From NCBI GenBank assembly GCA_964400655.1, contig CAYNVN010000121.1:2770-66769 (forward strand): a stretch of DNA of 64,000 nucleotides, written 5' to 3'. The position numbers and the translations under genes were made by a program. A model generated the notes under the pieces. The model searched no databases, had not been told where the DNA came from, and saw only the letters and a program-made list of their open reading frames with translations. The number at the start of each line of letters is the position of its first letter. Position 1 is the first letter of the stretch. Of the stretch, positions 20,987-45,293 are shown one piece after another. Origin of the DNA: an uncultured Lentimicrobiaceae bacterium (GTDB lineage: Bacteria; Bacteroidota; Bacteroidia; Bacteroidales; F082).

Positions 20987-22486
20987 TTATTGTTTTTTTA
21001 CCGGCTTGTTCAATCGTTTTTTAATGATGGGCAGAAGGAACGAAACTGCCGCCAGCACCAAAATAATCAAACTCCAGGGGCGGGTAAAAAAATCGGAAAC
21101 ATCACCTTTTACCAGCGAAAGACGCAGGTTTTCTTCTATCATCCTGCCCAGTATCAATCCTAAAATTACGGGTGCCGTGGGAAATCCTCCTCTTTTCAGC
21201 ATCCAGCCCAGAAGGCCGAAAGCCAGACAGGTTCCCACATCAAAAAGAGAATTTTGAATAAAGTAACTGCCGATAAAAGAAAGGGCAATAATCAGCGGAT
21301 AGAGCAGCTTTTTAGGAGCTTCAATTATACGTACCCAAAGCCTGTTTCCCATCAATCCCAGCCCCATCATCACCAGATTGGCCAGAAACAAACTGATAAA
21401 CAGACCGTACACCAGCCCCGGTTCATTTTCAAACAGCTGAGGGCCGGGATTCAGTTTATGAACCATCAGGGCACCAATCAGCACGGCTGTTGAAGCGCTT
21501 CCCGGAATACCGAGGGTTAACAAAGGCACCAAAGCGCCCCCCACCGATCCGTTGTTGGCAGCTTCGGGAGCGGCAACCCCTTCCAGCGAACCTTTGCCAA
21601 ACCGTTTGGGATGTTTGCTGGTGCTTTTGGCATTGTTGTATGCAATAAAGGTGGCAATGGTTCCTCCTGCGCCGGGAATAACCCCAATAAGCGTACCCAC
21701 CACCGATGAACGGAGCATCAAACCTTTCAGCTTCCACAATTTTCTAAAGGGTAGTTTTTTATTTTTATGAATGGCTTTTTTTGCCGAAACCTCTTTTTTA
21801 AGCACCTTAAAATGCTCAATACTAAAAAATATTTCACCTAAGGCAAACAACCCGATCAGTGCCGGAATAAACTCTATTCCGTCGGCAAGTTGCGGAATAC
21901 CCATATTAAAACGCGAAAACGGCAACTGCGTATCAAAGCCAACGGTAACCAAAAGCAAACCCAGCAGCGATGCAATGTATCCCTTTACCGGATTGTCTCC
22001 TGCCAGCGACGAAATAATGGTCATACCGAAAACACCCAAAGCAAAATATTCGTATGATTCAAACGACAGAGCCAGTTGTGCCAACGGAATGGAAAACAGG
22101 ATAAGAATTACCGTTCCTACCAAACCGCCAACCGTGGAAGCCGTTAACGATGTAATTAAAGCATACATGGGTTTTCCCTGTTTGGTTAACTCATAGCCGT
22201 CGAAAGTGGTGGCAACCGCTCCGGGTGTTCCCGGTGTATTAATGGCGATGGCAGTGATGGAGCCTCCGTAATTGGCCGAAAGATAAACCGCCGTTAGCAG
22301 TACCAGCGCGCTCATGGGGTCCATTCCAAAGGTAGCCGGCAACATCAGGGCAACCCCTATTGAGGGGGAAAGCCCGGGCAAAACACCCACCATAATGCCC
22401 ACAACCACGCCAATCAAAATCATCAGCAACGGTGTAAGGTGCATTAACGACGAAAAACCCAGACTCAAATTATGTATAATATCCAT
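20987..22486 (-). CDS. tctA: Tripartite tricarboxylate transporter large permease TctA
   Basis: 499-aa polytopic protein. The N-terminal ...GVLPGLSPSIGVALMLPATFGMDP...YGGSITAIAINTPGTPGAVATTFDGY is typical of TctA/DUF112. Confidence 0.9.
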   Translation of the reverse strand: MDIIHNLSLGFSSLMHLTPLLMILIGVVVGIMVGVLPGLSPSIGVALMLPATFGMDPMSALVLLTAVYLSANYGGSITAIAINTPGTPGAVATTFDGYELTKQGKPMYALITSLTASTVGGLVGTVILILFSIPLAQLALSFESYEYFALGVFGMTIISSLAGDNPVKGYIASLLGLLLVTVGFDTQLPFSRFNMGIPQLADGIEFIPALIGLFALGEIFFSIEHFKVLKKEVSAKKAIHKNKKLPFRKLWKLKGLMLRSSVVGTLIGVIPGAGGTIATFIAYNNAKSTSKHPKRFGKGSLEGVAAPEAANNGSVGGALVPLLTLGIPGSASTAVLIGALMVHKLNPGPQLFENEPGLVYGLFISLFLANLVMMGLGLMGNRLWVRIIEAPKKLLYPLIIALSFIGSYFIQNSLFDVGTCLAFGLLGWMLKRGGFPTAPVILGLILGRMIEENLRLSLVKGDVSDFFTRPWSLIILVLAAVSFLLPIIKKRLNKPVKKQ

Positions 22487-22498
22487 ATCCGTTATTCT

Positions 22499-24004
22499 TT
22501 ACATAAACAGGCTCCCAAGCGGCAGGTCAATTTTTAACAACAGCTGAAACACCACAAACGAAAACACCACAAATCCAAAACCGTAAGCAATCATTACCGG
22601 CCATTTACGATATTTGAGAATATAAAATCCGGCCAGTAAAAAAAAGGGCGTTGATAAATAATATCCGGCATACGGAATGGCAATAAAATACAATACCAAC
22701 ACCAACAATATTTTGCCTGTAAGTTTTATCCTTCCGCTTTTAACCGGTTTGTATTTTCCTTTTAATTCGTTTACCAGATTCCATATTGCCGTAACAAACA
22801 ATAAAACCGACCATAACCTCGGAATAAGTGCCGGGCTGGTGATGTTCAACCCTTCGGGGATTTTAAAAAGAAAAGTTTGATAGAAAAAGAAAACCGAAAT
22901 CCACACAAACACTCCCGACAAAATCAGATTGTAGGTAAGCCGTTTTACTTTAAATCCGGTAATCAGCATCAAAACAAAAAAGATAAAAAGCGCAAAAATA
23001 ACGGCCATCATCAAAAGAGGAACCGGGCCTTTGTTAACATAACTGTTTAGCAAACCGGCTTTTTTCAAATAGGCAATGGTTTCGGCCGTTTCGTCATCAA
23101 TTCTTTTTGAAAAGGTTTTGGAATCGAGATAATCCGGAAAAGAATAAACCTCTCTGCAATAAGCAATCCACTCCTCATCCTGCGAAACCTTTTTCAATAC
23201 CTCCGACAAATAAGCTGTTGCTATTTCGGAGGTTCCTTTTTTAACGGCAAAGCCGCGCCACATGGATTCATTAATATCATATCCCGACTCTTTAAAAGTG
23301 GGCACATCCGGCAAACTTTCCAGCCGGTTTTCGGCGGCTATTGCCAATATTTTCAAATCATCTTTTCCCAAAATATCCGAAGGGTTTCCCACATAAACCG
23401 GTGCTTCGTTACGCAACATGGCCAACACCGACTGCGGCCCGCTTTTATAATCAACCCATTGCCCGTTTATACCGAGTATTTCCCAGCACTTTAAAGCCAT
23501 TAAATGGTCACGGCTTCCGGTTCCGGGGCCAATCCACACCTGTCTGCCTTCTTCCTTCGCCTTATCCACAACATCCTGTAACGATTTGTATCCGCTTGCC
23601 TTATTGGTAATAACCGCTTCGGGGTCCGATATCATATTGGAAAGAAAAAGAAAGTCGGAAATGGCCACATTGCTTTTGTTAACCACAAGGGTGCTTAAAA
23701 ACGACTTGGTAACGCCCAGCATGGTATAACCGTCGGCCTTTTTATCCATCACATATTGCATGGCCACAATACCCTGAGTACCCGGATGATTTTCGATAAC
23801 AAAAGGCTGCGGGCAATATTTACGTGCCAAACCGGCAACCTTACGCGACATAAGGTCGATGGAAGAACCGGGTTTGGAATGCACCACAATGGTTATGGGT
23901 TTGTTCGGGTAGGCTTTGCTGCTGTCGGCTCCTCCGTACAAATAAAAAAGAAGCCCGAGATAAATCAGAAATAAAAGGGTGGCAATAACTTTATATATTC
24001 TCAT
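22499..24004 (-). CDS. Fusion of a TctC (Bug-type) solute-binding domain and a TctB small membrane subunit
   Basis: N-terminal TM anchor. A roughly 300-aa Bug/TctC-like region follows (PITIVVHSKPGSSIDLMSRKVA...PGTQGIVAMQYV...). The C-terminal ~165 aa has four TM helices, as in TctB. ATG at 24004 preferred over the TTG at 24031. Confidence 0.7.
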   Translation of the reverse strand: MRIYKVIATLLFLIYLGLLFYLYGGADSSKAYPNKPITIVVHSKPGSSIDLMSRKVAGLARKYCPQPFVIENHPGTQGIVAMQYVMDKKADGYTMLGVTKSFLSTLVVNKSNVAISDFLFLSNMISDPEAVITNKASGYKSLQDVVDKAKEEGRQVWIGPGTGSRDHLMALKCWEILGINGQWVDYKSGPQSVLAMLRNEAPVYVGNPSDILGKDDLKILAIAAENRLESLPDVPTFKESGYDINESMWRGFAVKKGTSEIATAYLSEVLKKVSQDEEWIAYCREVYSFPDYLDSKTFSKRIDDETAETIAYLKKAGLLNSYVNKGPVPLLMMAVIFALFIFFVLMLITGFKVKRLTYNLILSGVFVWISVFFFYQTFLFKIPEGLNITSPALIPRLWSVLLFVTAIWNLVNELKGKYKPVKSGRIKLTGKILLVLVLYFIAIPYAGYYLSTPFFLLAGFYILKYRKWPVMIAYGFGFVVFSFVVFQLLLKIDLPLGSLFM

Positions 24005-24231
24005 GGAGCCTTTTGGTAAATAAGGATACAATAATAAATCATTTTTTTTATTTCCACACCCACCAATGTTTGAATTGCAATCAGGCTGACAAAATGATAA
24101 AAACTAAAGAAACGGAAACTTATGTAAAAGCAAAACCGTTTTTGATATACTGCTTTATAAAGTACGTTTTGAAACCAACGGTTTACACCGGAAAGGCTTG
24201 ATGATACAGGGGGCTTTAGTTCGCTAATATT

Positions 24232-26649: not shown

Positions 26650-27353
26650 TTCTAAATCAATATTTTATCTCAAAACAAAATCAAAACAGGTTATTTTATA
26701 TAATTCTTTTTGCTTTTGCGGCGGTGTAACCCCCCCCCTGTTTTAGGAAGGCACTAAATTAGACTTTTTTCGTGTTATAATCTTTCATCCATTCTTCATG
26801 CAATCGGATTACCTGACGGGGAAAATCAAACATATAAATATCTGACACACCAGGCAGAGAGAAAATGCTTTTCAAAAAAAAGCAAAGGCAAATTTACAAT
26901 AGTAAAAAGGCAGACTTTTGATTTACCCCGAAACCGCTATTTTGTTGAGCTTCCCTATACAATAGGATTTGAACGGTTTGAGCATTTGGTTGAAAGCATT
27001 AAAAACAACTGCAATATTAATATGTTCAATGCCGCCCCGGTAACCCTTGCCCGTTACGACAGGGTAATGAACTTTATTGCTGTCTGTTCAAAAGATTGCG
27101 ATGAATAAAAGCTTCCTGAATTTAAATACTATCCCGACAAACATATTTAGAGAGATTTCTAAATTAAATATCTCAAATTTTCAGGTTATATCCTTTATAA
27201 ATAGTGCTGTAAAAAACAGTACTACAACTTATTCTGCATGCATAATATTTTTAGGTATCGAATATATTTAAATATAATATAAATAACTGACATCTTTTAT
27301 TTTATAAGGCATGAGATATAATTTTGCCCTCATCAACATAAAAGATTTTTCAC

Positions 27354-29018
27354 ATGAAAAAAATACTTGAAATCATTTTTATCATCATTATTCCCTGGGT
27401 TATTATCCTATGGATAGTATTCAATTACAATAGCGACAGGGACAGCGATTATTACCCCTCATCGGAGATTAGTCTGAAACACGACTCCATTCCGGTTGAC
27501 CACTCAAAATTTGAGATTTTACAGCAGGATTTCAAAACCGGCCCCGAAGTTACCGAAGCCTGTTTAAGCTGCCATAACGGACGGGGTAAAGAGTTTATGA
27601 AAACACAACACTGGAAATGGTTAAAAACCGACTCCATTCCCGGAAGAGGGACTTTTGAACTGGGAAAGAAAAACCTGCTGAACAACTTCTGTATCGGTGT
27701 TAACTCCAACGAAAAACTCTGTTCAAAATGTCATGCCGGATATGGCTACGGCGATAAAAACTTTGATTTCAACAATCAAAACAACATCGACTGTTTGATA
27801 TGCCACGACGGTACCAAAACCTATAAAAAATCCAAACCCGGCAAAGGCCCCGGTTCGGGTTCCGGATATCCGGCAGCCGGTGTTAACCTCAGCTTTGTTG
27901 CGCAACATGTTAATTTGCCAAAACGGAACAACTGCGGCAGCTGCCACTTTACCGGCGGAGGCGGAAACAATGTAAAACACGGTGATTTGGAAATAGGATT
28001 ACTGAGTGCACACACCGGACTTCACGGCGATGTGGATGTTCATATGGGAATGGGTAAAGACGGCAAAAACATGCAGTGTATCGATTGCCACAAAACACAC
28101 CAACATCAAATATCGGGTCAGCTTTACTCCGTTTCGTCATCCAACAGCAATCGTGCTACCTGCGAAGAGTGCCACACATCAAAACCGCACAAAAGCAAAC
28201 TGTTAAACGACCACTTTAAAACCATTGCCTGTCAAACCTGCCACATAACAGGCTATGCCAAATTACACGAAACCAAAATTATTTGGGACTGGTCAACCGC
28301 AGCCATGCACGACAAAAACGGCAAATTAATAACCAAAATAAACACAAAAGACAGCACCTATACATTCGACGGAAAAGTTTACAAAAATGTTAAAATACAT
28401 TTTGATGCCAAGCATGGTACCGCCGTATTTAAAAAAGATGTACGTCCCGAATACATCTGGTTTAACGGTACTGCCGACCACTACATGATTACCGATAAAA
28501 TCAAAGACCCCTCAAAACCTTTAGTAATGAACCCGCTGCTTGGTTCTTACGAAGATCATTACAACCCTGCCGACCCTAAATCACCTTCTAAAATATGGCC
28601 TGTTAAAATCATGCGCGGCAAACAACCTTATGATGCGGTTAATAAAACGCTGGTTCAACCCAAACTGGTAGGAAAAAAAGGCAGTGGTGCTTTATGGGCC
28701 GATTATAACTGGAACATCTCCATTAAAAAAGGCATGGAATATATCGGTCAACCTTACAGCGGTAAATACGGCTTTATCGAAACCCAAACACTGTGGCCGC
28801 TTAACCATGAAGTTTCGCAAAAGGATAAAGCCCTGCAATGTGCCGACTGCCACAACGCTACCGACAGCAGGCTGAAAAACCTCACCGGTTTTTATCTGCC
28901 GGGCAGAGACAAAAGCGCATTACTCGATAATGCCGGCCTCATCTTCCTCGTTTTGGTTTTACTGGGAGTCAGTATTCACGGATTCCTAAGAATTGTCAGC
29001 AGTAAAAAAGAACATTAA
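27354..29018 (+). CDS. Octaheme c-type cytochrome, tetrathionate-reductase (OTR)-family-like
   Basis: Eight CxxCH motifs: CLSCH, CSKCH, CLICH, CGSCH, CIDCH, CEECH, CQTCH, CADCH. There is a gap of about 200 aa before heme 8. N-terminal TM/signal anchor and a C-terminal TM helix LIFLVLVLLGVSIHGFL. The heme count is certain; the subfamily call is from memory. Confidence 0.8.
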   Translation: MKKILEIIFIIIIPWVIILWIVFNYNSDRDSDYYPSSEISLKHDSIPVDHSKFEILQQDFKTGPEVTEACLSCHNGRGKEFMKTQHWKWLKTDSIPGRGTFELGKKNLLNNFCIGVNSNEKLCSKCHAGYGYGDKNFDFNNQNNIDCLICHDGTKTYKKSKPGKGPGSGSGYPAAGVNLSFVAQHVNLPKRNNCGSCHFTGGGGNNVKHGDLEIGLLSAHTGLHGDVDVHMGMGKDGKNMQCIDCHKTHQHQISGQLYSVSSSNSNRATCEECHTSKPHKSKLLNDHFKTIACQTCHITGYAKLHETKIIWDWSTAAMHDKNGKLITKINTKDSTYTFDGKVYKNVKIHFDAKHGTAVFKKDVRPEYIWFNGTADHYMITDKIKDPSKPLVMNPLLGSYEDHYNPADPKSPSKIWPVKIMRGKQPYDAVNKTLVQPKLVGKKGSGALWADYNWNISIKKGMEYIGQPYSGKYGFIETQTLWPLNHEVSQKDKALQCADCHNATDSRLKNLTGFYLPGRDKSALLDNAGLIFLVLVLLGVSIHGFLRIVSSKKEH

Positions 29019-29036: not shown

Positions 29037-30566
29037 ATGAAAAAGGTATTAATATATAAAGGTTACGAACGTTTTTGGCACTGGACACAGGCATTGCTTA
29101 TCCTGCTGCTGGCGGTCACCGGTTTTGAAGTTCACGGAACTTTTCACTTAATGGGATACGAAGAGGCCGTATTAATTCACCGCAACCTGGCATGGGCATT
29201 TATCATTCTTATTGTTTTTACTCAATTTTGGAATATGACCACCGGCGAATGGCGACAATATGTTCCCTCAACCCAGTTGTTAAAAGACCAAATTGAATAC
29301 TACATAACAGGCATTTTCAGAAATGCCCCCCACCCCACACGTAAAACGGTTTACAACAAATTTAATCCGTTGCAACGCTTAACCTATCTCGGTCTCCGAA
29401 TATTAATCATTCCTGTGGTGGTATTAAGCGGATTGGTTTACATGTATTATGTATCGCTGGTTGATCAAAGCGCCGTGGGAAGTCTGGCACCTGTTGCCCT
29501 GATACACACCCTCGGAGCCTTTTTACTGCTCGGGTTTGTTATCGGCCATGTTTATTTAACAACTACCGGACACCGTCCGCTCTCGGCCATTAAAGCCATG
29601 CTCACCGGATGGGAGGACATGTCGGATGAAGATGCCGAAATGGCACTGGAAGAAAACTTAAAAGTGGCACTCATCGAAAGCAGAAAAGGCATTAGCGGAC
29701 GGGGAAGCATCGAAAAAGAGGGTATGTTTGAAACCGCCTTTGAAGATGTGGTGGAAAAACTGGGTATCAGCACCGAATCAACAAGATTGCGCGAAAAGCT
29801 ACTCTCCTCCAACGTTGGATATTTCCGTATCGGAAAAGACGGCAAATATCAGGAGGTGAACGAAGTTTGGCTCAAACTCTATAAATGCACCAATAAAAAA
29901 GAGGTGATAGGTTCGGATGTAACCCTCGACAGAACACCCGAAGGCAAAAAACAAATTATGACGCTCGTTAACAAAATCCTTTCGGGCGAAATAATTACCG
30001 GCGAACGTGTTGAACGGGTTTGTAAAGACGGCAGCATAGGTTATCATACCGTTTCGGCAGCACCGCTAAAAGACAAAGACGGTAACATTGTCGGACTGGA
30101 AGGCTTTATCATCGACATCACCCCGCAGGTAGAAGCCGAAAAAGCCCTTGAAAAGAAAATAGCCGCCCAACACCGGTCGAATATTTTTTATGAGCAGATT
30201 GCCAAATCAAAAGATGTGGGTTATTTCCGCATTGGCGATCAGGGATTTTATCAGGAGGTAAACGATGCCTGGCTTAAACTTTACAAATACGAATCAAAAG
30301 ACGAAATCATCGGCAAACACTACTCGTTAAGCCGTACCAAAGAAGACTTTATTAAACTGAAACAATCATTTGAAAAAGTTTTAAAAGGTGAAACCATCCC
30401 GCTGGGTATTACACGCCGTTATTGTAAAGACGGATCGGTAGGTTATCACACCATAACCATGACCCCTGTTTACGAAAACGGTAAAATTACCGCCGTTGAA
30501 GGATTTATTGTTGACAAAACCGACCGCAAGCTGGCCGAAGAAGAGTTGAAAAAAGGACAGGTTTAA
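29037..30566 (+). CDS. Cytochrome b (Ni/Fe-hydrogenase/PhsC b-type family) membrane domain fused to two PAS domains
   Basis: N-terminal ERFWHWTQALLILLLAVTGF, four TM helices with conserved His residues, and ...GHVYLTTTGH. Two paralogous PAS-like repeats follow, starting VGYFRIGKDGKYQEVNEVWLKLYK and VGYFRIGDQGFYQEVNDAWLKLYK. No kinase or other output domain. Confidence 0.8.
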   Translation: MKKVLIYKGYERFWHWTQALLILLLAVTGFEVHGTFHLMGYEEAVLIHRNLAWAFIILIVFTQFWNMTTGEWRQYVPSTQLLKDQIEYYITGIFRNAPHPTRKTVYNKFNPLQRLTYLGLRILIIPVVVLSGLVYMYYVSLVDQSAVGSLAPVALIHTLGAFLLLGFVIGHVYLTTTGHRPLSAIKAMLTGWEDMSDEDAEMALEENLKVALIESRKGISGRGSIEKEGMFETAFEDVVEKLGISTESTRLREKLLSSNVGYFRIGKDGKYQEVNEVWLKLYKCTNKKEVIGSDVTLDRTPEGKKQIMTLVNKILSGEIITGERVERVCKDGSIGYHTVSAAPLKDKDGNIVGLEGFIIDITPQVEAEKALEKKIAAQHRSNIFYEQIAKSKDVGYFRIGDQGFYQEVNDAWLKLYKYESKDEIIGKHYSLSRTKEDFIKLKQSFEKVLKGETIPLGITRRYCKDGSVGYHTITMTPVYENGKITAVEGFIVDKTDRKLAEEELKKGQV

Positions 30567-30677: not shown

Positions 30678-31283
30678 CTACTTTCCGGCATTATCTCTCG
30701 ATTTTTGGCCGAGGTAACCGCCATGATGGCGTAATGAATACTCTTTGCTGGTGAATCCTATTTTTTTCATCATCTGCACCACCAAAATATCGCCTATCAC
30801 GGTCATAATGGTGGTGGAAGTGGTGGGCGACAAACCCAGAGGGCATACCTCCCGGGGATTACCCGTACAAAGCACCACATCGGCTTCGCCGGCAACCACA
30901 CTTTCGTTGTTGGAGGTTACGGCAATAATGGGAATATCGGGATGGAGTCGCCGGGTAAGTGTTATCAATTCAATTATTTCGCGGGTTTTACCCGAATTGG
31001 AAATAAGCAACAGCGCATCGTTCCGCTGAATAACACCCAAATCGCCGTGTTGTGCATCGCTCGGGTGCAAAAATACCGACGGAGTTCCCGTAGAGCTGAA
31101 AGTGGTGGCAATGTTAATGGCAATTTGTCCCGCCTTACCCATACCGCTGGTAATTAGTTTACCCTCCTTTTGGTGCACATGACGGTAAATAATTTCGATG
31201 GCCTTTTCGTAAGCATCCGTAACCGGAATATTTAAAATGGCTTCTGCTTCCTGCTGCCTTATCTTTAATATATCGTCTATCAT
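30678..31283 (-). CDS. Single-domain SIS protein, KpsF/KdsD (arabinose-5-phosphate isomerase)-like, without CBS domains
   Basis: GKLITSGMGKAGQIAINIATTFSSTGTPSVFLHPSDAQHGDLGVIQRNDALLLISNSGKT closely follows the KdsD/GutQ SIS core. Start chosen at MIDDILK. Confidence 0.8.
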   Translation of the reverse strand: MIDDILKIRQQEAEAILNIPVTDAYEKAIEIIYRHVHQKEGKLITSGMGKAGQIAINIATTFSSTGTPSVFLHPSDAQHGDLGVIQRNDALLLISNSGKTREIIELITLTRRLHPDIPIIAVTSNNESVVAGEADVVLCTGNPREVCPLGLSPTTSTTIMTVIGDILVVQMMKKIGFTSKEYSLRHHGGYLGQKSRDNAGK

Positions 31284-31434
31284 TGTAATTTGCTTTGGAA
31301 AGCACAAAAGTAGTCAAAATAAAATCTACGTTTTCAAACTTAGGTTGTCAATTATTAAAGTTATCCTATTTTAGCAGGCTTACAAAAAGCCTGTAAATAT
31401 ATTTTGTAAAAAAACCAACAAAAATCGTAAACAA

Positions 31435-43775: not shown

Positions 43776-45293
43776 GTGGATATTTACACCAAAAAAAAAC
43801 GATGGAAGATATTTCTGTTTATCGCAGGAATGATACTTATTGCCGTTTCAATTTTTTATACCAACCGGCTGGTGGGTAAATTTGCGTCTGCCGAGCGTAA
43901 AAACGTGCGCCTGTGGGCCGATGCCGTACACCGCAAAGCCGAGTTAATGCAATATACCGAAAAGTTTTTCGGCCAGCTTCAGGAACAAGAACAAAAAAAG
44001 GCAGCATTGCTTGCCAAAGTGTATAACCGCCTGCTTAACGATACGGTTTCGCCCGACCTTACCTTTTACCTCGACATTATCCATGACAACAAAACCATAC
44101 CGATTATTTTAACCGACGAAACCGGATTAATTTTAAACACCAAAAACCTGCAGGAAGGACAAGACACAATAAAATATCTTACCGGAAAACTTAAAGAGGA
44201 GTTTTCGGTTTACGAACCCATTGAAGTGGAATATATTAAAGGAAAAAAGAATTTTCTTTACTATAAAAACTCTACCCTGTTCACCGAATTAAAAAATGTA
44301 CTGAATGATTACATCACCATTTTCATTGAGGAGGTAGCTCTTAACTCATCAAGTGTTCCGGTAATTATTACCGACAGCACGCAATCCAATATTTTGCTTT
44401 ACGGCAACCTGAACGAAATTAAAATGAGTGATTCCTCTTTTGCCGTTAAGAAACTGATGGAAATGAAAGGCGAAAACAAACCCATTGTATTGGATTTTCT
44501 TGATGTTGGAAAGGTTTACATTTTTTACAAAGACTCGGAACTGTTAAATAAGATGAGACTTTTTCCGCTGGCACAACTGTTAATCATCATTGCGTTTATC
44601 GGGATAGCTTACCTGTTATTCAGCATATCGCGCAATGCCGAACAAAACCGGGTTTGGGCAGGAATGGCACGCGAAACAGCCCATCAGATTGGCACCCCCC
44701 TCTCTTCGATTTTAGCATGGATAGAGCTTTTAAAAATGGACGGAGCCGATCACAAGCAAGCCGCCGATGAAATTGAAAAAGATGTTACCCGGCTCCAAAT
44801 GATTTCGGAAAGGTTCTCTAAAATAGGGTCAACCCCGTCTCTCGAACAAACAAACATTTCGGAAACAATAAGAAAAACCATTGACTATTTAAAGCCGCGA
44901 ACTCCGCGAAAAACAGAATACCATATCAAATTGCCAAAACATGATGTTATTGCTTTGGCCAACGGCCCGCTTTTTAGCTGGGTGCTGGAAAATCTTTTTA
45001 AAAATGCCATTGATGCCATGAGCGGAAAAGGAATAATAACCGTTGAAATGAAAGAGGAAAACGGCAGCGTTATTATTGATGTTAAAGATACCGGCAAAGG
45101 CATTTCGCGAACGGAACAACGTGATGTTTTCAATCCCGGGTACACTACCAAAAAACGCGGCTGGGGCCTCGGCCTTTCATTGGCAAAACGTATTATCAAA
45201 GAGTATCATAAAGGAAAAATCTATGTAAAACACTCCTCACCGGGAAAAGGCACCACCTTTCGTATTGTTTTAAAAAAGGAGGCTAAAATATAA
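43776..45293 (+). CDS. Sensor histidine kinase (orphan)
   Basis: GTG start, two TM segments flanking a periplasmic region of about 230 aa. H-box ARETAHQIGTPLSSI, N-box NLFKNAIDAM, G-boxes DTGKGI and GWGLGLSL. No adjacent response regulator. Confidence 0.85.
   Translation: MDIYTKKKRWKIFLFIAGMILIAVSIFYTNRLVGKFASAERKNVRLWADAVHRKAELMQYTEKFFGQLQEQEQKKAALLAKVYNRLLNDTVSPDLTFYLDIIHDNKTIPIILTDETGLILNTKNLQEGQDTIKYLTGKLKEEFSVYEPIEVEYIKGKKNFLYYKNSTLFTELKNVLNDYITIFIEEVALNSSSVPVIITDSTQSNILLYGNLNEIKMSDSSFAVKKLMEMKGENKPIVLDFLDVGKVYIFYKDSELLNKMRLFPLAQLLIIIAFIGIAYLLFSISRNAEQNRVWAGMARETAHQIGTPLSSILAWIELLKMDGADHKQAADEIEKDVTRLQMISERFSKIGSTPSLEQTNISETIRKTIDYLKPRTPRKTEYHIKLPKHDVIALANGPLFSWVLENLFKNAIDAMSGKGIITVEMKEENGSVIIDVKDTGKGISRTEQRDVFNPGYTTKKRGWGLGLSLAKRIIKEYHKGKIYVKHSSPGKGTTFRIVLKKEAKI

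Follow-up and report, generated by a model that had tools for sequence, protein, structure and literature searches.

Respiratory cytochromes b and membrane-associated PAS sensors

Di-haem cytochromes b of the HyaC, FdnI and PhsC type (PF01292) have four transmembrane (TM) helices and four conserved histidines, and their genes adjoin the gene of a periplasmic redox enzyme with its own TM anchor. The partner is a molybdoenzyme or a hydrogenase, and the membrane-anchor helix of FdnH, like that of the hydrogenase small subunit, packs onto the FdnI- or HyaC-type cytochrome. To our knowledge, no characterised member of this group carries a PAS extension on its cytoplasmic side. Cytoplasmic PAS domains that sit at the membrane and monitor the respiratory chain or the quinone pool are found in Aer (E. 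coli energy taxis), ArcB, BvgS and EvgS, which have HAMP/MCP or kinase outputs and a non-cytochrome membrane part. The short LOV proteins PpSB1-LOV, PpSB2-LOV and W619_1-LOV, in turn, consist of a PAS core, an N-cap and a C-terminal helix, and have no effector; such effector-less PAS proteins are thought to signal via partners.

The window analysed here, a 64-kb stretch of DNA, encodes a protein whose N-terminal 190 residues resemble the HyaC/FdnI/PhsC type in their four TM helices and four conserved histidines, and whose gene likewise adjoins that of a redox enzyme with a TM anchor. Here, however, the partner is an octahaem cytochrome c. Unlike Aer, ArcB, BvgS and EvgS, the protein is a respiratory subunit and has no output domain. 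On its best reading, it is a predicted quinol-oxidising subunit with a built-in cytoplasmic sensor, which would act without a phosphorelay, in cis or via a partner. The features of the locus, all on the + strand, are as follows.

27354-29018, +: OTR-family octahaem cytochrome c of 554 aa; N-terminal anchor, C-terminal TM helix (TIGR04315, PF11783)
29037-30566, +: cytochrome b-linker-PAS-PAS gene, 509 aa plus stop (ORF list)
29055-29609, +: di-haem cytochrome b membrane domain, aa 7-191 (PF01292; four TM helices)
29619-29801, +: helical, cytoplasmic linker, aa 195-255 (AlphaFold (AF2) helices; no family match)
29805-30131, +: PAS domain 1 (PAS1), aa 257-365 (PAS_4, PAS_9, AF2)
30189-30515, +: PAS domain 2 (PAS2), aa 385-493 (PF00989, TIGR00229, AF2)
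30519-30563, +: C-terminal helix behind PAS2, aa 495-509, followed by the stop codon (AF2)

Gene architecture and integrity

Profile searches and AlphaFold agree on the architecture that a preliminary description of the locus had proposed, namely a transmitter-less protein in which a cytochrome b precedes two paralogous PAS domains. The motifs quoted there for the two modules occur in the sequence exactly as given, and the coordinates 29799-30566 hold for the PAS half, although the whole gene starts at 29037. A domain search, suggested in the same description, returned two PAS stretches above the cut-off and no cryptic output domain. HisKA, HATPase, GGDEF, HTH and other families in Pfam and NCBIfam gave no score in the 509-aa protein; no histidine kinase core (HisKA/DHp plus HATPase_c) was recovered, since kinase models matched the PAS region only, and partially. 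The protein ends 16 residues beyond the DxT motif of PAS2. The downstream gene (SIS, 30678-31307) lies on the opposite strand, so PAS2 is not followed by a split-off output domain.

It had also been considered that two genes might have been joined by mis-assembly or a frameshift. Nothing was found in favour of this explanation, whose probability is negligible. An identical 509-aa protein is encoded on eight independent contigs from separate ENA and JGI assemblies, and full-length homologues with the same architecture, 64-95% identical, form more than 100 clusters and occur in 38 species genomes. The reading frame is unbroken, and the linker is conserved in the alignment; the ORF is genuine.

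The cytochrome b membrane domain

The Ni_hydr_CYTB profile (PF01292) matches aa 7-191 with 85.4 bits (cut-off 30.1), over profile positions 2-179 of 179. The AF2 model places TM helices at residues 9-32, 41-69, 111-141 and 151-176. The presumed haem ligands, assigned from conservation and the HyaC alignment, are:

29079-29081, +: H15
29178-29180, +: H48
29505-29507, +: H157
29547-29549, +: H171

One histidine lies on TM1, one on TM2 and two on TM4, the arrangement of a PF01292 di-haem cytochrome b. All four are invariant, both in 90 fused sequences and in a mixed set of 16. Over its whole length, the family profile can be aligned with E. coli HyaC (PDB 4gd3; E 7e-4), and the histidines of the two are then in register. 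TM4 holds both H157 and H171, 14 residues apart as in FdnI, where the corresponding histidines are H155 and H169, and it ends about 20 residues ahead of the linker.

Lysine and arginine residues number four in the N-terminus, none in loop 1, seven in loop 2 and none in loop 3. This positive-inside distribution agrees with the cytoplasmic location previously given to the PAS domains, and fits the topology of HyaC and FdnI.

Scores against equivalog models were below the cut-offs for PhsC (NF011582; 95.8 bits vs 204), the HyaC type (50.9 vs 121.5 bits) and FdnI (35.9 vs 115.85 bits). Judged by sequence, the domain is related to PhsC, and is not its orthologue.

Residues Y106, N107 and F109 of fused proteins, which are Leu, Ser and Leu in plain ones, were considered as a PAS docking signature and rejected, as these positions follow phylogeny. 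Fused proteins from Calditrichia carry LSKL, and the plain proteins of loci L043, L044 and L068 carry YNKF or YTKF. Positions 106, 107 and 109 are the only discriminating ones and are clade markers; no cytochrome b residue co-varies with the presence of PAS.

The octahaem partner and the gene neighbourhood

The gene that ends 18 nt before the start of the cytochrome b gene encodes an octahaem cytochrome c of the OTR subfamily, with 524.7 bits for TIGR04315 (cut-off 375), 188 bits for Cytochrome_cB (PF11783) and eight CxxCH motifs in its translation. The previously proposed link to the octahaem enzyme is borne out by comparative data: in 78 of 80 related loci, the gene immediately 5′ of cytochrome b is an OTR gene, and a contig edge truncates the remaining two. 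A hydrophobic C-terminal helix is present in 67 of 72 OTRs, and an H-x3-R motif occurs in the six OTR tails inspected, as well as in that of the window. By analogy, this TM helix may resemble the anchors of FdnH and the hydrogenase small subunit that pack on FdnI/HyaC-type cytochromes. Apparent single-ORF fusions of OTR and cytochrome b in loci L060, L064 and L073 proved to be artefacts of naive ORF calling in high-GC DNA.

Plain OTR cytochromes b of about 215 aa, from Bacteroidota, Ignavibacteria, Acidobacteriota and others, are 53-63% identical to the membrane domain and are likewise encoded directly 3′ of OTR. They end approximately 20-30 residues past TM4, whereas the protein of the window continues with a 60-aa linker and two PAS domains. 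The plain operons often continue with YeeE-type sulfur-transport and rhodanese genes; the window locus, in contrast, has no sulfur-handling neighbours, and no homologue of the rhodanese, YeeE, Psr, Rieske or Crp neighbours found at other loci occurs within the 64-kb window.

An alternative to action in cis is a relay in trans, in which the PAS domains, or the redox state of haem b or the quinone read through them, would signal by protein contact to an unlinked or neighbouring soluble partner, for example a transcription factor sequestered or released at the membrane in the style of a 'trigger enzyme'. This reading, which is rather unlikely, draws on the short LOV proteins, effector-less themselves and the best fold matches, and on two neighbouring genes. 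At 12 fused loci out of 38, in the class with one PAS, a Crp/Fnr-family regulator is encoded divergently beside the operon. It was rejected as a PAS-specific partner: it also adjoins the plain operons L051, L059 and L067, and thus tracks the type of operon, not the PAS domain. The second gene, a conserved hypothetical of 236 aa, immediately precedes OTR in several fused loci and in no plain locus of the sample, but the copy in the window is a remnant with an internal stop, and no regulator gene adjoins the operon there. Nor does any kinase, STAS, anti-sigma or other signalling gene recur as a conserved neighbour in the 80 loci. The orphan kinase at 43776-45293, once put forward as a candidate partner, is an ordinary HisKA plus HATPase protein 13 kb away; no conserved linkage was seen in these loci, and nothing supports that pairing.

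The PAS domains and their pocket

The PAS_4, PAS_9, PAS and PAS_3 profiles each match two stretches, approximately aa 257-365 and 385-490, with 40-53 bits (cut-offs 23-27), and the NCBIfam model TIGR00229 ('PAS S-box') matches two stretches with 102 bits (cut-off 22.9). PAS1 is covered by PAS_4 at 257-365 and PAS_9 at 261-362, and PAS2 by PF00989 at 385-487 and TIGR00229 at 382-504. The two modules are 48% identical to one another (E 1e-36). The full-length AlphaFold model contains the four TM helices, helices over residues 197-256 and two canonical PAS folds, with a five-stranded sheet in PAS1; PAS2 modelled alone has a pLDDT of 92, and in both models strands and helices succeed one another as in other PAS domains. 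In Foldseek comparisons, the nearest solved folds to PAS2 are the short LOV proteins (TM ~0.8), and lower-ranked matches include the Aer FAD-PAS (8dik; TM ~0.7).

Conservation within PAS2, mapped through the alignment to the YtvA LOV domain, points to the following residues at LOV pocket positions:

30318-30320, +: H428
30333-30335, +: R433
30417-30419, +: R461
30423-30425, +: C463
30447-30449, +: H471

Across 44 PAS units, R433, R461 and H471 never vary, and at least 90% of the units retain H428. The alignment with YtvA LOV sets the conserved PAS2 residues opposite the NCRFLQ motif and the two Asn that contact the flavin; it is from this sequence alignment to LOV that the pocket-facing orientation of H428, R433, R461 and H471 is taken. 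In PAS1 of the window protein, the near-invariant His is lost and the position equivalent to 428 is Asp.

The pocket differs from those of known cofactor-binding PAS domains. Short LOV proteins are soluble and bind FMN via the Cys of GxNCRFLQ in response to blue light, whereas PAS2 is membrane-tethered and has GKHYSLSR at this motif, with R461 and H471 replacing the two Asn; PAS1 has GSDVTLDR. The proximal His of FixL and EcDOS is absent from F-alpha (aa ~301-315 and 435-449) in both the window protein and the family consensus, a result that concerns the FixL/EcDOS mode of haem binding only. The family PAS profile found no match among PDB sequences at E<0.001, and weak generic PAS/LOV alignments at E<=10 served residue mapping solely. 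The lack of a PDB match at this threshold, of the LOV Cys motif and of the FixL/DOS F-alpha His counts against in-cis gating.

These observations bear on two further explanations. In the first, the PAS domains would carry haem or flavin and extend the redox chain, as a cytoplasmic entry or exit point for electrons; as a transmembrane wire, the protein would link a cytoplasmic donor to the periplasmic octahaem enzyme, instead of or besides being a quinol dehydrogenase. The fold matches include solved PAS domains that bind flavin (LOV, Aer, NifL) as well as one that binds haem (EcDOS), the conserved His and Arg could ligate haem iron or bind a propionate or phosphate, and the PAS domains are tethered just under the cytoplasmic-side haem ligand H171. 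Even so, NCRFLQ, the two Asn and the haem-PAS F-alpha His are all missing, and a long flexible linker would not keep a cofactor within electron-transfer range of haem b. PAS-less orthologues are, moreover, linked to OTR equally, which makes quinol the likely donor. A redox extension is improbable.

In the second, the PAS domains would be structural only, as a scaffold for dimerisation or oligomerisation or as a stabilising cap, and would sense no ligand. PAS domains often dimerise, the best fold matches of the tandem-PAS model are dimeric sensors, no cofactor motif is recognisable, and free variation between one and three copies would be tolerable for a spacer or scaffold. Against this stand the polar or charged nature of the invariant residues, which lie at positions aligned with a ligand pocket and not on the sheet surface alone, the retention of the PAS subtype by sensor kinases, where it is a single specific unit out of many, and the fact that about half of the related operons work without PAS. 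A purely structural role is judged unlikely.

A PAS subtype shared with histidine kinases

In a library search, the PAS pair ranked proteins by summed score, which placed giant multi-PAS proteins on top; domains were then rescored singly against the family profile. Single PAS domains of proteins of 600-2000 aa reached 110-141 bits. Among 31 such proteins, HATPase_c was found in 19, REC in 18 and HisKA in 13. With one PAS domain of protein P0211 (aa 143-266), PAS2 of the window shares 46% identity (E 6e-38), but with the other PAS domains of P0211 only 22-28%. The comparison sets the PAS unit apart, at the level of sequence, as a subtype of its own, which multi-PAS histidine kinases likewise use as one of their input domains. 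Looking up the clusters of these kinases yielded no informative names or taxonomy.

The PAS unit of the multi-PAS hybrid kinases shares Y396, N409, W412, H428, R461, C463, H471 and E488 with PAS2. Position 433, in contrast, is mostly Gln in the kinases ('TQ') and Arg in the cytochrome-fused domains ('SR'). In the kinases, the unit lies amid other PAS, GAF and REC domains before the kinase, whereas the cytochrome b-PAS protein has no kinase.

The linker and the C-terminal helix

The linker (aa 195-255) is acidic, matches no Pfam or NCBIfam family, and is modelled as helices at 197-217, 226-241 and 247-256 with a pLDDT of 46-64. Relatives of ~441 aa form a short-linker class, with about 20 residues in this region (alignment A1). 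The full-length model shows no confident docking of PAS on the membrane domain (pTM 0.41, linker pLDDT ~50). A low-confidence linker of 60 residues is a poor rigid transmission element, which is an argument against in-cis gating, as are the unconfident docking, the absence of cytochrome b residues that co-vary with PAS, and the lost PAS1 His.

Behind PAS2, AF2 predicts a helix at 495-508. Its 'D(I/K)T(D/E)RKxAEEEL' motif is common to the inter-PAS linkers of multi-PAS kinases; the helix is the usual connector from a PAS to the next domain, here leading to nothing.

Distribution and the accessory PAS tail

At least 38 species-level genomes, most of them from Bacteroidota, encode relatives with one, two or three copies of PAS; outlying fusions come from Calditrichia and from bins labelled Chlorobiota. 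Relatives from Draconibacterium, Labilibaculum and Lutibacter have one or two PAS copies. The family is abundant in anaerobic Bacteroidota of sediments and digesters. The fusion is common in Bacteroidota, not rare, and public databases already list it, though only under generic names such as 'PAS domain S-box protein' and 'cytochrome b/b6 domain-containing protein'. The earlier remark that no characterised example was known is borne out, in that no literature on the cytochrome b-PAS fusion was found; the published accounts retrieved concern Otr homologues and rhodanese clusters only.

About half of the 80 related loci encode the plain ~215-aa cytochrome b without PAS, which makes the PAS tail accessory. 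The number of PAS domains in orthologous operons is 0, 1, 2 or 3, and plain forms are nested inside the fused clade. PAS2 and PAS3 of one three-PAS protein are 71% identical, which points to recent tandem duplication.

Proposed function

It is proposed that, in an OTR-type octahaem cytochrome c reductase encoded by two genes, the protein would be the membrane di-haem, quinol-oxidising subunit, whose cytoplasmic C-terminus may have gained a sensor module made up of two tandemly duplicated PAS domains of the kinase-input subtype. The match of this subtype to input domains of multi-PAS kinases favours a sensor role. The ligand of the module, a small molecule of the cytoplasm or a redox-active compound, would occupy a conserved polar pocket formed by H428, R433, R461, H471 and usually C463. 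As there is no kinase or DNA-binding output, the PAS domains would act directly on the complex to which they are tethered. The signal may pass from the helical linker to TM4, a region that in FdnI adjoins the quinone site on the cytoplasmic side. The passage of electrons out of the quinol pool and into the octahaem enzyme of the periplasm could thereby be tuned or gated.

The analysis establishes the architecture, the cytoplasmic position of the PAS domains, the pairing with OTR in the operon, the accessory status of the tail, the PAS subtype and the conservation of the pocket. From these we infer both ligand binding and an in-cis action on electron transfer, and that a ligand-binding PAS pair tunes or gates this flow in cis is a tentative but credible proposal. 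The evidence makes a sensing role more likely, and does not choose between gating and relay to a partner.

Significance

Control of respiratory branches is usually ascribed to transcription, through Fnr, Arc, Nar and similar regulators, or to the supply of substrate. PAS domains on a quinol-oxidising subunit would, if the proposal is true, show allosteric control acting directly on electron flow; in the other case, a respiratory enzyme could double as a signal source. FdnI/PhsC-type cytochromes carry electrons across the membrane and thus couple to proton-motive force, and gating of such a subunit could spare the cell energy dissipation.

In a wider and rather speculative reading, the PAS domains built into a respiratory quinol dehydrogenase would form a post-translational switch, by which a cytoplasmic metabolite or redox ligand turns one electron-transport branch on or off, and neither a kinase nor a second messenger nor transcription would take part. 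In multi-PAS kinases, this ligand-specific PAS subtype would report the signal to gene expression.

In sediment and digester Bacteroidota, OTR operons have rhodanese, YeeE and Psr genes alongside, and the finding thereby bears on the regulation of sulfur-compound respiration. The His/Arg/Arg/His pocket, furthermore, marks a PAS subtype common to many sensor kinases, and identification of one ligand would annotate them all.

Architecture of the cytochrome b–PAS protein

Features of the two-gene module and its downstream neighbour
27354–29018, 18 nt upstream of the cytochrome b–PAS gene: OTR-family octahaem cytochrome c gene (TIGR04315 and CxxCH motifs)
29037–30566, plus strand: cytochrome b–PAS gene, an ORF of 509 residues
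30678–31307, next downstream and convergent to the cytochrome b–PAS gene: SIS domain gene (Pfam)

Pfam places Ni_hydr_CYTB (PF01292) on residues 7–191 of the 509-residue protein (85.4 bits; cut-off 30.1), and two PAS stretches, also above cut-off, at about residues 257–365 and 385–490 (PAS_4, 52.6 bits; PAS_9, 46.5; PAS, 44.3; PAS_3, 40.2). Over the two stretches, the NCBIfam model TIGR00229 ('PAS S-box') scores 102 bits. Neither Pfam nor NCBIfam gave a score for a kinase, a cyclase, an HTH or any other output family, and because the downstream SIS gene is convergent, no output domain has been split off. The full-length AlphaFold model (pLDDT 77) contains four long transmembrane (TM) helices, two canonical PAS folds, a terminal helix (495–508) after PAS2, and linker helices at 197–256 of low confidence (pLDDT 46–64). 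Scores and model thus confirm the cytochrome b with tandem PAS domains and no transmitter proposed in the preliminary description, whose PAS motifs were all found exactly as quoted. The two modules are indeed paralogous (48% identity, E = 1e-36). The interval 29799–30566 assigned earlier covers the PAS half; the gene as a whole spans 29037–30566.

An assembly fusion of two genes is ruled out, as the identical protein is encoded on eight contigs of separate ENA and JGI metagenome assemblies, including a sister strain with an only 87% identical OTR and different downstream genes. Searching 5.8 billion proteins yielded 543 relatives, and all full-length members among the best 120 carry PF01292 and PAS. 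The architecture is not rare; it is common in databases, under generic names only ('PAS domain S-box protein', 'cytochrome b/b6 domain-containing protein'). Length classes are about 383 residues (one PAS, long linker), 441 (two PAS, short linker), 509 (two PAS, long linker) and 636 (three PAS). PAS2 and PAS3 of a three-PAS protein share 71% identity; the module therefore grew by tandem duplication.

The OTR partner and the membrane domain

The OTR protein scores 524.7 bits against TIGR04315 (cut-off 375) and has eight CxxCH motifs. A genome scan with one genome per species kept the best 80 of at least 551 stretches encoding cytochrome b relatives. An OTR gene lies directly upstream in 78 of these 80, and the other two reach a contig end there, which bears out the suggested association of the fusion with octahaem cytochromes. 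The cytochrome b is of quinol-dehydrogenase type and dedicated to the OTR enzyme. It is PAS-fused at 38 of the 80 loci, in bins labelled Lentimicrobiaceae, Bacteroidales, Rikenellaceae, Paludibacteraceae, Flavobacteriaceae/Lutibacter, Draconibacterium, Labilibaculum, Acetofilamentum, 'Chlorobiota' and Calditrichia. The remaining 42 encode a plain cytochrome b of about 215 residues (Bacteroidales, Ignavibacteria, Acidobacteriota and others). Of the genomes kept, a Lentimicrobiaceae MAG is the closest (81% identity). Two loci, L032 and L037, each hold two OTR–cytochrome b(PAS) operon copies a few kb apart, indicating local duplication of the whole module.

A hydrophobic C-terminal helix is present in 67 of 72 related OTRs and at 28900–29015 in the window, and an H-x3-R motif (…GVSIHGFLRIV…) occurs in that of the window and in six further tails inspected. 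This helix could pack against the cytochrome b partner, or help to ligate haem there. The solved Shewanella OTR is a soluble protein.

Residues His15, His48, His157 and His171 are invariant in family alignments of the cytochrome b domain, whose profile aligns end to end with Escherichia coli HyaC (PDB 4gd3; E = 7e-4), the four histidines in register. The protein falls below the NCBIfam equivalog cut-offs of PhsC, HyaC and FdnI, and by these profiles is classed as a family member, not an orthologue of any of the three. Lys/Arg counts (N-terminus, 4; loop 1, 0; loop 2, 7; loop 3, 0) give an N-in, C-in topology, which puts the PAS domains in the cytoplasm. In the FdnI structure, two TM4 histidines 14 residues apart serve as ligands of the periplasmic-side and the cytoplasmic-side haem, with the quinone site next to the cytoplasmic-side one. 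The same spacing is present here, and the linker to PAS1 begins about 20 residues past His171.

The PAS module

Across 44 family PAS units, Gly395, Tyr396, Gly403, Val408, Asn409, Arg433, Gly451, Arg461, His471, Gly489 and Phe490 are invariant; Trp412, Tyr416, His428, Asp465, Pro477, Glu488 and Asp493 are at least 90% conserved; Cys463 is common and replaceable. A weak, motif-anchored alignment to YtvA LOV places His428 and Tyr429 at the N and C of NCRFLQ, Arg433 at its Q, and Arg461 and His471 at two flavin-contacting Asn residues. These five residues are accordingly placed as the predicted lining of a conserved polar pocket. The family PAS lacks the LOV cysteine motif and also an F-α helix histidine, the haem ligand in FixL and DOS; that the module is itself a cofactor-bearing electron-transfer element is considered very improbable. 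A PDB sequence search with the family PAS profile gave no matches at E < 0.001. A PAS2-only model (pLDDT 92) superposes best on short LOV proteins (TM about 0.8), with Aer FAD-PAS, NifL and EcDOS ranked lower, and the complete tandem is similar to sensor modules of LOV-PAS, DosP, FixL and MmoS.

The best 150 representatives of a 1.8-billion-protein search were rescored one domain at a time with the family PAS profile. Individual PAS units of 600–2000-residue proteins scored 110–141 bits, compared with 145–180 for family members, and share the motif AGYFxID..G.F..VN.AWL.MH.Y...EVIGKHFS.TQ ... F.RRCKDGS.GYHTFSA.PV...G...GLEGFLIDITERK. In 31 such proteins, HATPase_c occurs in 19, REC in 18, HisKA in 13 and GAF in several. 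PAS2 of the cytochrome b–PAS protein shares 46% identity (E = 6e-38) with a single PAS of P0211, a multi-PAS hybrid histidine kinase, and only 22–28% with its others. The module is therefore a PAS subtype of its own, which serves canonical sensors as one input; the kinases mostly have Gln at position 433, whereas Arg typifies the cytochrome-linked lineage. Given this usage, sensing is more likely than a purely structural role, which is judged unlikely.

In a neighbour-joining tree of the cytochrome b domain, most fused forms cluster together. The plain forms at loci L043, L044 and L068 fall inside the fused group, and fused Calditrichia proteins inside the plain. Only positions 106, 107 and 109 separate fused from plain forms (YNKF versus LSKL), and these were rejected as a PAS-specific signature because they track those clades, not PAS presence. 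The dispensable tail has therefore undergone repeated loss and, probably, repeated gain or transfer. The cytochrome b positions revealed no adaptation of the membrane domain specific to PAS.

Gene neighbourhoods

Further features of the window
20987–22486: TctA gene
22499–24031, minus strand: 510-residue ORF joining a TctC-type periplasmic receptor (PF03401) to a TctB membrane domain (PF07331)
26929–27150, plus strand: remnant of a conserved 236-residue hypothetical gene with no Pfam family
43776–45293, plus strand: 505-residue HisKA + HATPase_c kinase

Among the related loci L005–L084, plain operons read MerR–OTR–cytochrome b–YeeE-like–(YeeE + rhodanese), and one-PAS operons Crp/Fnr (divergent)–OTR–cytochrome b–rhodanese–rhodanese–porin (Porin_O_P)–rhodanese. 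A Psr/Phs-like molybdoenzyme set (PsrABC-like genes) often adjoins the 441-residue class, and a Rieske protein and large cytochrome b/multihaem protein lie upstream at some loci. These neighbours suggest a role in sulfur-compound respiration. No rhodanese, YeeE, Psr, Rieske or Crp gene lies within the 64-kb window, where the module sits amid sugar-utilisation genes (GH3, SIS, fucosidase, fuc).

The 236-residue gene remnant retains only the C-terminal ~74 codons, with an internal stop, and is 85% identical to the sister strain's intact copy. Intact copies lie just upstream of OTR at PAS-fused loci (L002/L004, L005, L006, L021 and L037) and were absent from the plain loci sampled.

TctA, TctB and TctC are components of the tripartite tricarboxylate transporter. 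The TctC–TctB ORF adjoins the TctA gene, and a fusion of about 501 residues is also one gene in four independently assembled contigs (L001–L004).

Proposed mechanism

It is proposed that the PAS module may bind a cytoplasmic ligand or redox cue and would act in cis on electron flow, via the adjoining TM4/quinone-site region. This reading is preferred, if tentatively; speaking against it are the long linker with its low model confidence, the low inter-domain confidence (pTM 0.41, full-length AlphaFold) and a lack of cytochrome b residues that co-vary with PAS presence. Action in trans on a partner is somewhat unlikely. The Crp/Fnr neighbour also lies beside PAS-less operons, and the kinase at 43776–45293, suggested earlier as a partner, has no conserved linkage across related loci. 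No family matches the ~290-residue N-terminal region of this kinase at E ≤ 1e-5, and the annotated ORFs nearby include no response regulator.

A full-text literature search found no description of the cytochrome b–PAS fusion or of an OTR–cytochrome b–PAS operon. Otr homologues are mentioned in PMC10376724 and PMC5317091; in one instance they cluster with rhodaneses and are implicated in thiosulfate respiration. Each part is familiar; their combination is widespread in databases yet uncharacterised. Were PAS shown to gate a respiratory branch directly, the fusion would gain in interest.
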